Assembly: GCA_965214095.1 (NCBI GenBank) | Contig: OZ243938.1 | Span: 2,720,001 to 2,784,000, forward strand | Origin: Candidatus Poribacteria bacterium | Lineage (GTDB): Bacteria > Poribacteria > WGA-4E > WGA-3G | Length of the DNA stretch: 64,000 nt | Direction of reading: 5' to 3' | In this document: one piece after another, positions 6,743 to 56,333 of the stretch | Position numbering within the stretch: the first letter of the stretch is position 1 | Layout: each line of letters opens with the position of its first letter | Program-made: the position numbers and the translations under genes | The notes under the pieces: generated by a model | What the model saw: only the letters and a program-made list of their open reading frames with translations | The model's database searches: none | Told to the model about the DNA's origin: nothing

Positions 6743-6852
6743 AGGATTAAGAAATAAATCCGGTAATTTCCTTGAGAAGTCCGGAGCGGTTAGGAAACCG
6801 CTCCTACCGGGTTTGGGAAAATGAGAATTACCCGTTTAATAAATTAATCTTC
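6743..6852. repeat. 110-bp shell with imperfect terminal IRs carrying one GTAG-REP hairpin (uninterrupted paralog of the IS4 insertion site)
   Basis: Near-identical to 22820-22880 joined to 24389-24437; REP GAGCGGTTAGGAAACCGCTC-CTAC at 6784-6807. Confidence 0.85.
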
Positions 6853-22776: not shown

Positions 22777-22880
22777 CGTGAGTTCGGTATAAGCAATTCT
22801 TTATAGTGCAAACTTTATGAGGATTAAGAAATAAATTGGGTAATTTCCTTGAGAAGTCCGGTGCGGTTAGGAAACCGCAC

Positions 22881-24368
22881 CATAGGCGTCAATTTAAGGA
22901 TGCACCAAGACCGATAAGTGTCAACTTTTAATCAGAGGAAGTATAAATTATGAAATAAAACTTCTGTAAAAATGAAAACACCTCATATATAATGTAGATA
23001 TAGATTTATTATGGTCTACAAAGAGGTGTTTCCTAATGAATACATTATCACAAGTTCCCAAAGAAATGCAACATATTCTTACAACTATAGCCAATGATGC
23101 AGCTCTCAATACAGGTTTTGTCAAAAGAAGTTGTAAACTCAACGGTAGTCGTTTTGCTCAAATACTCATTTGGACTTGGTTAGAAAACCCAGATGCCACC
23201 TATACACAACTTGCGCAAACCGCTGGTGTGCTGGGGATTTCAATCTCACGACAAGCCATTGAACAACGATTTACATCTGAAGCAGCAGAGACCCTGAAAG
23301 TTATCCTTGATGCTACTGCGTCCAAGGTTATTTCTGCCGACCCGCAAACGCTTCCGCTCCTTGAAAAGTTCACTGGTGTCTATTTACAAGATAGTTCTTG
23401 GATTACACTCCCTGATGTGCTCCACGAAACTTGGGAAGGTGGAAGCAAAAAGAATAAACCGAACACAGCTGCCGTGAAACTCCACCTGCGTTTTGATAGT
23501 GCCACAGGCACTTTTGAACACTTTGAACTGACCAATGGTATCACCGCTGATAGTGCTATTGAAAAGCAGATTGACATGCTACCCGCCGGCAGTTTGCGCC
23601 TCGCAGACCTCGGCTATTATTCACTTGATACCTTCAAAAGACTTTCCGATGCAAACGTCTTTTGGATATCACGCTACAAAGTCCAGTGTTTTCTCTATGA
23701 TGAAACAGGTGCCCCTTTTTGCTTGCTAAAATGGCTCAAGAAGGGTTCTAATAACTTCAAGGACAAACAAATCTTTATAGGTAAAAACAAGCGTCTCAAA
23801 GCACGATTAGTTGTTCAAAGACTTTCAGAAACAGAAACCCAACAGCGTATTAAGGAGATAAAACATCGTGCAAAGCGGAAGTATACGAAACCTTCACCCA
23901 AACGACTTCAGCTCGCAAGATGGAATATCTACATTACTAATATAAAAGTAGACCATCTGACTGCTGAACAGATTTGTGCTGTCGCACGCATCCGATGGCA
24001 GGTTGAGTTGATGTTCAAGTGCTTCAAAAGCATTGGAAAAGTTGATACCTCCCGTAGCGACAAGCCATATAGAATCTTATGTGAGTTATATGCAAAACTC
24101 ATCGTCGCAATTATGCGGCACTGGATCATGTTAAGGGTCGGTTGGCGATGTCTAAAACATAGTCTAACAAAAACAGCAGAACTTATTAGCACCTTCGCAC
24201 GCACACTTGCAATAGGTTTCCGCAAGTCTATAATGTCTTTTCGGCAAACTTTTGATGAAATAAAACACGCTTTCCAAAATGGGTGCTACATTGAGAGACG
24301 TGCTAATAGAGACACAACATTAGAACACCTTGAAAATGCAGCAAAAAATCACTAAATTGACGCTTATG
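22881..24368 (+). mobile_element. IS4-family insertion sequence (1488 bp) with 20-bp target duplication
   Basis: TIR CATAGGCGTCAATTTAA / CTAAATTGACGCTTATG (15/17); flanked by identical GTGCGGTTAGGAAACCGCAC at 22861-22880 and 24369-24388. Confidence 0.93.
23036..24355 (+). CDS. IS4-family DDE transposase
   Basis: LQDSS (D), ADLGY (D), RWQVELMFK (E); stop codon lies inside the right TIR. Confidence 0.92.
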   Translation: MNTLSQVPKEMQHILTTIANDAALNTGFVKRSCKLNGSRFAQILIWTWLENPDATYTQLAQTAGVLGISISRQAIEQRFTSEAAETLKVILDATASKVISADPQTLPLLEKFTGVYLQDSSWITLPDVLHETWEGGSKKNKPNTAAVKLHLRFDSATGTFEHFELTNGITADSAIEKQIDMLPAGSLRLADLGYYSLDTFKRLSDANVFWISRYKVQCFLYDETGAPFCLLKWLKKGSNNFKDKQIFIGKNKRLKARLVVQRLSETETQQRIKEIKHRAKRKYTKPSPKRLQLARWNIYITNIKVDHLTAEQICAVARIRWQVELMFKCFKSIGKVDTSRSDKPYRILCELYAKLIVAIMRHWIMLRVGWRCLKHSLTKTAELISTFARTLAIGFRKSIMSFRQTFDEIKHAFQNGCYIERRANRDTTLEHLENAAKNH

Positions 24369-24458
24369 GTGCGGTTAGGAAACCGCACCTACCGGGTTTG
24401 GGTAAATGAGAATTACCCGTTTAATAAATTAATCTTCATTTAGTTTGCGTACACGAAT

Positions 24459-55898: not shown

Positions 55899-56010
55899 AA
55901 TTTTTCTCCTGTTCTTGTGCCATTTTCATCAGTCACACTCCCCGGTAGATGCGGTTTCCTAAACGCATCTATGACACTGAACAAACACTGGTTCGGTTAG
56001 GATACCGAAC

Positions 56011-56181
56011 CATAGGCATCAATTTAGCGTCCTTCCAAGTACCGGTAGGTTCGGTTTCCTAACCGAACTGGCTTTGTGTCAAATACCTTCATAGAGGTTC
56101 TCGCGTAGGATCCGGTTCGGTTAGGAAACCGAACCTACCAGCCTGGAATTATAGCGTAATTCCCTTAAATTGACACCTATG
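56011..56181. mobile_element. 171-bp MITE sharing the IS4 element ends, with 20-bp REP target duplication and internal REP doublet
   Basis: TIR CATAGGCATCAATTTAG / CTTAAATTGACACCTATG; flanks GTTCGGTTAGGA(T/A)ACCGAAC at 55991-56010 and 56182-56201. Confidence 0.9.
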
Positions 56182-56333
56182 GTTCGGTTAGGAAACCGAA
56201 CCCACCGTAGCGTGTAAATAATTATGGTTTTACTATAATGGTATGTTCTCAAATAGGAATGGTATTATATATGATATTGGATTTTCGGACGCACTATTCA
56301 ATCTACAGACTGTACAAATTTGAGAAGAAATGA

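Follow-up and report, generated by a model that had tools for sequence, protein, structure and literature searches.

A stretch of 64,000 nucleotides from a Candidatus Poribacteria genome (contig OZ243938.1, positions 2,720,001 to 2,784,000; hereafter the window) contains one intact copy of a 1488-bp insertion sequence (IS) at positions 22881-24368 on the + strand, whose ends read CAT...ATG. The IS is bracketed by GTGCGGTTAGGAAACCGCAC at 22861-22880 (+) and by an identical second copy at 24369-24388 (+). Folding and the flanks of 13 genomic copies identify this 20-mer as a duplicated target and also as a hairpin resembling a repetitive extragenic palindrome (REP), which raises the question whether the hairpin or the transposase determines how much of the target is duplicated. 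The first-pass annotation had correctly read a CAT-ended IS between two identical 20-mers and had favored the hairpin, as cuts at the two bases of an extruded cruciform would render the duplication as long as the hairpin itself. This mechanism is not supported by the present data: the same 20 bp were duplicated at three coding sites that form no hairpin, and hairpin variants of identical structure were avoided. The duplication length is set by the enzyme and not by the hairpin.

Length of the target duplication

The genome (G000; 5.2 Mb, 41% G+C, main contig C1) harbors 13 copies of the IS with 98.3-100% identity, and an exact 20-bp direct repeat surrounds every one of them. Ten copies are located precisely on the hairpin GTKCGGTTTCCTAACCGMAC. 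The other three (C1:4200153, 4265783 and 4400707) are flanked by unrelated 20-mers with folding energies of 0 to -0.6 kcal/mol. Because these three carry quite different 20-mers, the repeat is not an invariant part of the element ends. Tabulation of the flanks, which the first-pass annotation had proposed as a check, thus yielded 20 bp at the non-REP sites as well, instead of the 8-13 bp that would have spoken for an ordinary IS4-family insertion. None of the 13 copies shows the duplication of one helical turn (7-13 bp) given for the IS4 family in Table 1 of PMC2266710.

When orthologous loci without the IS were taken from further genomes of the genus, the alignments of the two flanks overlapped by 20 bp in eight of eight loci, representing three sites; two of the eight needed an extrapolation of 1-5 nt at the alignment ends. 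An overlap of exactly 20 bp means that the uninterrupted gene contains the 20-mer once. Scripted removal of the IS together with one 20-mer restored stop-free frames at all three non-hairpin sites. The IS at C1:4400707 interrupts a ResIII/DEAD helicase gene within the Helicase_C domain (restored frame 606 aa), the copy at 4200153 an open reading frame (ORF) without Pfam match (269 aa) and the copy at 4265783 a WD40-repeat gene (315 aa).

The same operation was applied to the window copy, which resides in a host element referred to as MITE-B (MITE stands for miniature inverted-repeat transposable element). Its left arm (22817-22860) and right arm (24389-24438) enclose the IS and both 20-mers. 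The restored unit was identical to the uninterrupted paralog at 6743-6852 (+), which has a single hairpin, at 105 of 110 aligned positions, and two of the five differences form a compensatory pair in the stem. The claim that the 20 bp are a true target duplication was therefore upheld by the paralog, by the empty sites and by the exact repeats around all 13 copies. The segment 22817-24438 is missing from G021, the genome most closely related (92% identity in the flanks), so that the orthologous site there has neither the IS nor the ~115-bp host unit. Since both are absent there, MITE-B arrived first and the IS then entered its central hairpin. MITE-B itself is a mobile small element of ~115 bp, whose terminal repeats are imperfect and whose center is occupied by a REP hairpin. 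It is present in at least 19 near-full copies in the genome; its orthologous site in G021 is terminator-like (GCAAAC-TTTT-AGTTTGC).

As coding sites without a hairpin also acquire 20-bp duplications, the stagger of ~20 bp is a property of the transposase. This was extended to related IS (transposases 46-90% identical), which were detected in 45 of 176 Poribacteria genomes searched, these relatives being metagenome-assembled genomes of Candidatus Poribacteria. A cyanobacterial source and a tie to small dispersed repeats, initially suggested by the composition, were discarded on this ground. Their ends were anchored on CAT...ATG, since palindromic duplications extend the apparent inverted repeats. 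Sixty further copies displayed exact duplications of 20 bp (14 copies), 19 bp (15), 18 bp (1) and 17 bp (4), and duplications of 7-13 bp were observed in none; 23 had no matching flanks (three with mis-detected ends) and three had no end pair. A further 29 Poribacteria loci showed 20 bp (3), 19 bp (10), 18 bp (1), no duplication (11) or no end pair (4). Sites without hairpin were again duplicated over similar lengths, namely 20 bp in G023 (L154) and at L003, 19 bp in G001 (four sites, L197 being unambiguous) and in G173 (L168), and 18 bp in G007.

A second, longer palindrome, GTCGGGTAGAGCG..GAAACCCGAC, serves as target for many of these relatives, and the duplicated 17-20 bp lie there inside the stem and not at its base. 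Within a single IS species, both in G173 and in G148, the duplication measured 19 bp where the hairpin had 19 nt and 20 bp where it had 20 nt. Because the duplications track hairpin length in these two genomes, the cuts appear to be tied to the ends of the stem, as long as these deviate from the intrinsic stagger by no more than about one base. The earlier expectation that the duplication follows the hairpin thus holds for one base within one IS species, and it fails as the cause of the 20 bp. At five loci of relatives (L144, L129 and L140 in the set of 29, L228 and L264 among metagenome loci), the hairpins on either side of the IS are reverse complements with a flipped loop and not direct repeats, which could reflect inversion between IS copies residing in opposite hairpins or inversion of the loop.

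Hairpin preference and target sequence

The 20-mer folds into an 8-bp stem with a 4-nt loop (-8.7 kcal/mol as DNA). Allowing three mismatches, it occurs 12 times in the window compared with 0.01 expected from shuffled sequences. Genome-wide we found 802 hairpin cores, 677 of which are preceded by GTAG and 579 of which have a fully complementary outer stem. They fall into four stem classes of equal loop and stem length that are linked by compensatory changes. The family thus has the features of REPs, being a high-copy palindrome of 20-40 nt that carries a GTAG tag on its 5′ side and varies in its stem by compensatory changes.

The IS shares its ends with a group of MITEs. The 16-nt end motif (up to two mismatches) occurs 163 times in the genome, and 26 occurrences are the ends of the 13 IS copies. 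The remaining motifs mostly belong to MITEs of ~171 bp, which have only the terminal 17-20 bp in common with the IS and contain one hairpin ~37 bp inward from each end. One of them is located in the window at 56011-56181 (+), with the IS terminal repeats and two internal hairpins; the 20-bp hairpin duplications flanking it (55991-56010 and 56182-56201) are one mismatch apart. The flanks of 60 candidate IS/MITE end pairs, some of them redundant owing to nested arrays, matched with up to two mismatches in 40 cases (20 bp in 36, 19 bp in three and 21 bp in one). Eighteen of these 40 lie off the canonical hairpin, and the non-hairpin MITE duplications measure 19-21 bp.

Insertion into hairpins is precise. 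The preference for REPs noticed in the first-pass annotation was confirmed by the ten IS copies, which always sit on the hairpin in register, and by the complete set of ends: 78 of the 163 IS/MITE ends adjoin a hairpin in exact register and one is off register. Each insertion leaves two copies of the hairpin, as had been supposed. The hairpins adjoining an end were unevenly distributed among the classes (conservative binomial P = 1.5e-5), with 58 of the GTK type and 17 mixed ones, in comparison with one of 76 ATGC and none of 123 GCGA hairpins. The avoided outer stems, GCGA..TCGC and ATGC..GCAT, have the same loop and stem length as the classes that are used. Moreover, in common convergent doublets of 42 bp a used GTTC-type hairpin is paired with an unused one of the ATGC type 22 bp away, so that genomic context fails to explain the difference between classes. 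Non-hairpin duplications, inspected by eye, mostly start with G(G/T)(G/T) and finish with (A/C)(A/C)C. Since non-hairpin sites are used and isostructural variants are avoided, structure alone is neither needed nor sufficient, and the bases at the outer ends of the duplicated interval are important. Neither insertion nor duplication length depended on hairpin potential in the way that cruciform-directed targeting entails.

Two further proposals concerned the consequences for the host. Self-amplification of the target was found to be real while the elements persist: 176 of the 802 hairpins (22%) are either duplication copies (76) or MITE cargo (109). A search for excision footprints revealed no two hairpins less than 31 bp apart, start to start, in the genome. 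The idea of a safe harbor is only partially valid, since 3 of the 13 IS copies break genes.

The nested arrays deserve separate mention. At C1:2057070-2057414, half-MITE plus hairpin units form a run with a period of 58 bp, and a 45-kb region at C1:3639000-3684200 is crowded with IS, MITE and hairpin copies. Both arrays probably arose when elements inserted time and again into hairpins that were themselves duplication copies or cargo, with hairpins recombining afterwards.

REPs are commonly discussed together with REP-associated tyrosine transposases (RAYTs), that is, Y1 transposase genes flanked by REPs; no such partner was found among the Y1 genes of this genome. Four Y1 genes (141 aa; C1:81623, 2170036, 2385609 and 4230081) belong to copies of a 1.8-kb IS200/IS605-like unit, two of which have a hairpin just beyond the repeated unit, and a truncated Y1 frame of 115 aa (L065) has no hairpins nearby. 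Among 31 Y1 loci scanned, a single one (L097 in G012) carries a RAYT-like Y1 frame of 161 aa between five hairpins. Contig C2 of G000 (32,066 bp) has a G+C content of 64% versus 41% for the main contig and is possibly foreign.

The transposase and its relatives

The left terminal inverted repeat of the window IS, CATAGGCGTCAATTTA (22881-22896, +), and the right one (24353-24368, -), recognized by comparison of the ends, agree at 15 of their 16 first bases. Both the left repeat and CATAGGCGTCAATTTAAGGA fit the IS231 end consensus CAT-------AA--TAA--- listed in Table 1 of PMC2266710. The transposase is encoded without frameshift by a single ORF of 439 aa (23036-24355, +), whose stop codon falls within the right inverted repeat and which is intact at a fixed offset in 11 of the 13 genomic copies. 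Short terminal inverted repeats starting with 5′-CA and a single ORF are typical of the IS4 family. The protein matched Pfam DDE_Tnp_1 with 80.4 bits (cut-off 23) and NCBIfam transpos_IS4_1 with 195.4 bits (cut-off 115), and NCBIfam IS1634 with only 28.7 bits (cut-off 100). D119, D191 and E324 are invariant in the alignment with relatives, and their spacers of 71 and 132 residues lie within the D(60-110)D(100-150)E triad of the family. The Y(2)R(3)E(6)K signature is incomplete, as R320, E324 and K331 are kept and the tyrosine position is occupied by Ala317. At residue 226, four genomic copies including the window copy have alanine and seven have aspartate; this tally omits two 1487-bp copies that were not read at the fixed offset.

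A predicted fold of moderate quality (mean predicted local distance difference test score 71) gave Tn5 transposase structures as the best Foldseek matches (1MUH, 4DM0 and 1MM8; E 1e-10 to 6e-9), with 1MUH aligning over 414 columns at 13% identity (E 1.2e-10). Only this fold search reached Tn5; PDB sequence searches with the transposase alone or with a 13-sequence profile provided no meaningful chain match. Judged by its sequence, the element is an intact DDE IS of the IS4 family, related to IS231.

The nearest named relatives in a tblastn search are IS231B and IS231C (27-28% identity), and 692 of 777 matching plasmid records are from Bacillus. Members of the IS231 subgroup combine a duplication of 10-12 bp with high transposase identity, from which the window IS differs in both respects. 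Long duplications reappeared outside the phylum, in two plasmid-borne copies of Chloroflexota, one from Chlorohelix (34% identity; 20 bp) and one from Herpetosiphon (20-21 bp). Metagenome loci with 29-54% identity were usable in 42 of 80 cases. Six of these displayed 20 bp, one displayed 11 bp and two, which probably represent a single site, displayed 21 bp, these relatives being 30-38% identical; the other 33 had no duplication. The true IS231C of B. thuringiensis has an 11-bp duplication, and so do distant relatives with IS231-like ends from Clostridium and Prolixibacteraceae, for example GGGTTAGACCC and GGGTCAGACCC.

In a phylogenetic tree, IS231C and the 11-bp elements of Clostridium and Prolixibacteraceae formed a well-supported clade apart from the elements with long duplications. 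L285 (11 bp) was placed in a polytomy, and the tree leaves a single origin of the long duplication undecided; one row (L127) represented a wrong ORF with a branch length of 9.4 and was disregarded. The two groups differ in the protein as well. The region following the catalytic glutamate comprises 111-119 aa in long-duplication elements, with two exceptions, versus 128-143 aa in 11-bp elements, and the tyrosine of the YREK signature is kept in five of five 11-bp relatives versus 5 of 17 long-duplication relatives. The duplication of ~20 bp is a clade-wide trait occurring in at least two phyla.

Proposed target recognition by symmetric half-sites and its alternatives

We consider it quite probable that the IS belongs to an IS4/IS231-related clade with an intrinsic stagger of ~19-21 bp, which picks its targets by symmetric sequence half-sites. 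The element would move by cut-and-paste transposition, as expected from its family membership, and the transpososome would strike the two target strands ~19-21 bp apart, corresponding to about two helical turns versus the usual one of the family. Either wider-spaced active sites or a bent target may account for this geometry. Target recognition would be sequence-dependent and symmetric, with one half-site at each end of the interval and the loose consensus 5′-G(G/T)(G/T)...(A/C)(A/C)C-3′. Such half-sites would have their analog in the G-rich...C-rich sites of 11 bp used by IS231-type elements, lengthened by one helical turn. The abundant GTAG-tagged hairpins with their outer stems GTKCGG...CCGMAC would offer two perfect half-sites exactly 20 bp apart, and the IS and the 171-bp MITEs would therefore land there in register. 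Gap repair would then copy the entire hairpin. When Cas1-Cas2 duplicates a CRISPR repeat, the two ends of this partly palindromic sequence are likewise attacked in a staggered manner and the whole repeat is copied; this is an analogy only, since enzyme and substrate are unrelated. The spacing may tolerate about one base in either direction while locking onto the half-sites, and the one-base tracking of hairpin length seen in relatives would follow from this flexibility.

Several observations weigh against this explanation. The half-site consensus is loose and was judged by eye from about a dozen non-hairpin sites, two of which begin with A. Recognition of structure would also account for the exact coincidence of duplication and hairpin length and for the way in which the two shift together by one base in G173 and G148. 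Copies without matching flanks were frequent among the Poribacteria relatives (23 of 60 and 11 of 29) and the metagenome loci (33 of 42); these are tentatively attributed to recombination between copies, decay or chimeric assembly. With respect to the GTAG side, nine of the ten IS insertions into hairpins point the same way (binomial p 0.02), which a purely symmetric model does not predict; no bias was seen in the orientation of the MITEs relative to the hairpin, the number of cases being tiny. Finally, the long-duplication trait may already be on record in ISfinder, and the additional files of PMC2266710, which list individual elements, might hold an exception. Literature phrase searches (20-bp duplication; two helical turns; Poribacteria IS) returned nothing relevant, with ISfinder and the supplements of papers lying outside the search.

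A more elaborate version, which we regard as possible at best, makes the clade a machine for copying REPs. It assumes that the protomers grip the two stem arms of the REP, which would bind the cut sites to the stem ends, and that the intrinsic stagger of every IS lineage (17-21 bp) has been adjusted to how long the REPs of its host are. The non-hairpin default is consistent with this REP-copying scheme: genomes whose hairpins have 20 nt show 20 bp, and those with shorter REPs show 18-19 bp.

The alternative that survives best combines the intrinsic stagger of ~20 bp with a REP preference that is aided, beyond the half-sites, by transient extrusion of the hairpin, intrinsic bending or a REP-bound host protein. 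Hairpin enrichment far above what the loose GKK...MMC consensus would yield speaks for such a contribution, as do the one-base tracking and the bias in orientation (nine of ten) relative to the GTAG side. Nevertheless, hairpin classes of equal structure and context remain unused, including the ATGC type 22 bp from the used GTTC type, and the proposed cofactor has no direct evidence; we therefore regard this combination as unlikely. More doubtful still is the cruciform model, in which the transposase recognizes the extruded hairpin and cuts at its two bases. The exact register of 10 of 13 IS copies and of 78 of 79 hairpin-adjacent ends, as well as the 19- and 20-bp duplications produced by the same IS on hairpins of corresponding length, would be natural consequences of it. 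It is opposed by the three IS copies and several MITEs that duplicate 19-21 bp where no hairpin can form, the IS cases being backed by empty sites, by the avoidance of isostructural variants (0 of 123 and 1 of 76) and by the longer palindrome GTCGGGTAGAGCG..GAAACCCGAC, which is duplicated within its stem and not at its base. That the 20-mers are no duplication at all, having been part of the element ends or pre-existing tandem hairpins between which the IS landed, can practically be dismissed: a palindromic 20-mer does lengthen the apparent inverted repeats, but the flanking 20-mers vary among copies (three being unrelated), uninterrupted paralogs and orthologs hold a single copy, and hairpin pairs spaced closely enough are absent from the genome.

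The window IS stands close to, and yet apart from, known systems. IS231A, B and C of the Bacillus cereus group resemble it in their single-ORF DDE transposase, their end consensus and the symmetric G-rich...C-rich ends of their targets. The target consensus of IS231A is reportedly GGG(N)5CCC, a sequence said to have been described by Hallet et al. in 1994. In contrast to the 20 bp of the window IS, IS231C duplicates 11 bp and the subgroup 10-12 bp, and the identity of 27-28% to IS231B and IS231C is far below the >50% usual inside the subgroup, according to the portions of PMC2266710 used here. The same portions (De Palmenaer et al. 2008) give 7-13 bp for the IS4 family and call a duplication of one helix turn a hallmark; the only long repeats mentioned in them are those of IS1634 and IS1549, which vary by copy from 8 to 514 bp and for which no model is offered there. 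These IS4-related elements share unusually long repeats with the window IS, but theirs are variable whereas those of the window clade are fixed at 19-21 bp. Tn5/IS50, the best structural match of the predicted fold, shows only 13% identity and duplicates 8-9 bp (PMC2266710, in part).

The statement of the first-pass annotation that some IS target REPs agrees with the literature, as such elements are known in five families, including ISRm22 of the IS4 family (Tobes and Pareja 2006, PMC1525189, consulted in part). Like the window IS, ISRm22, ISPsy8, ISPpu9/10, ISPa11, IS1397 and IS621 insert mostly or always at one fixed point of the REP. However, in the sections of PMC1525189 concerned their insertions divide the REP at its dyad or close to it and give direct repeats of 0-6 bp, whereas the window IS duplicates the whole hairpin and leaves two intact copies.

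Duplication length has been treated as a family constant that reports transpososome geometry. The sister clade of IS231 breaks this rule with a fixed duplication of about two turns, and the related 11-bp and 20-bp enzymes lend themselves to a comparison directed at the cause of the stagger. For annotation, it should be considered that a palindromic duplication extends the apparent inverted repeats, so that a long duplication is easily mistaken for a short one when it falls in a palindrome. Furthermore, REP-like hairpins can multiply without their tyrosine transposase. If the REP-copying scheme is true, insertion of IS and MITEs, and not RAYT alone, would drive REP multiplication, and IS231 with its 11 bp and the 20-bp clade would be an example from nature of a transpososome whose geometry has switched by a single helical turn.

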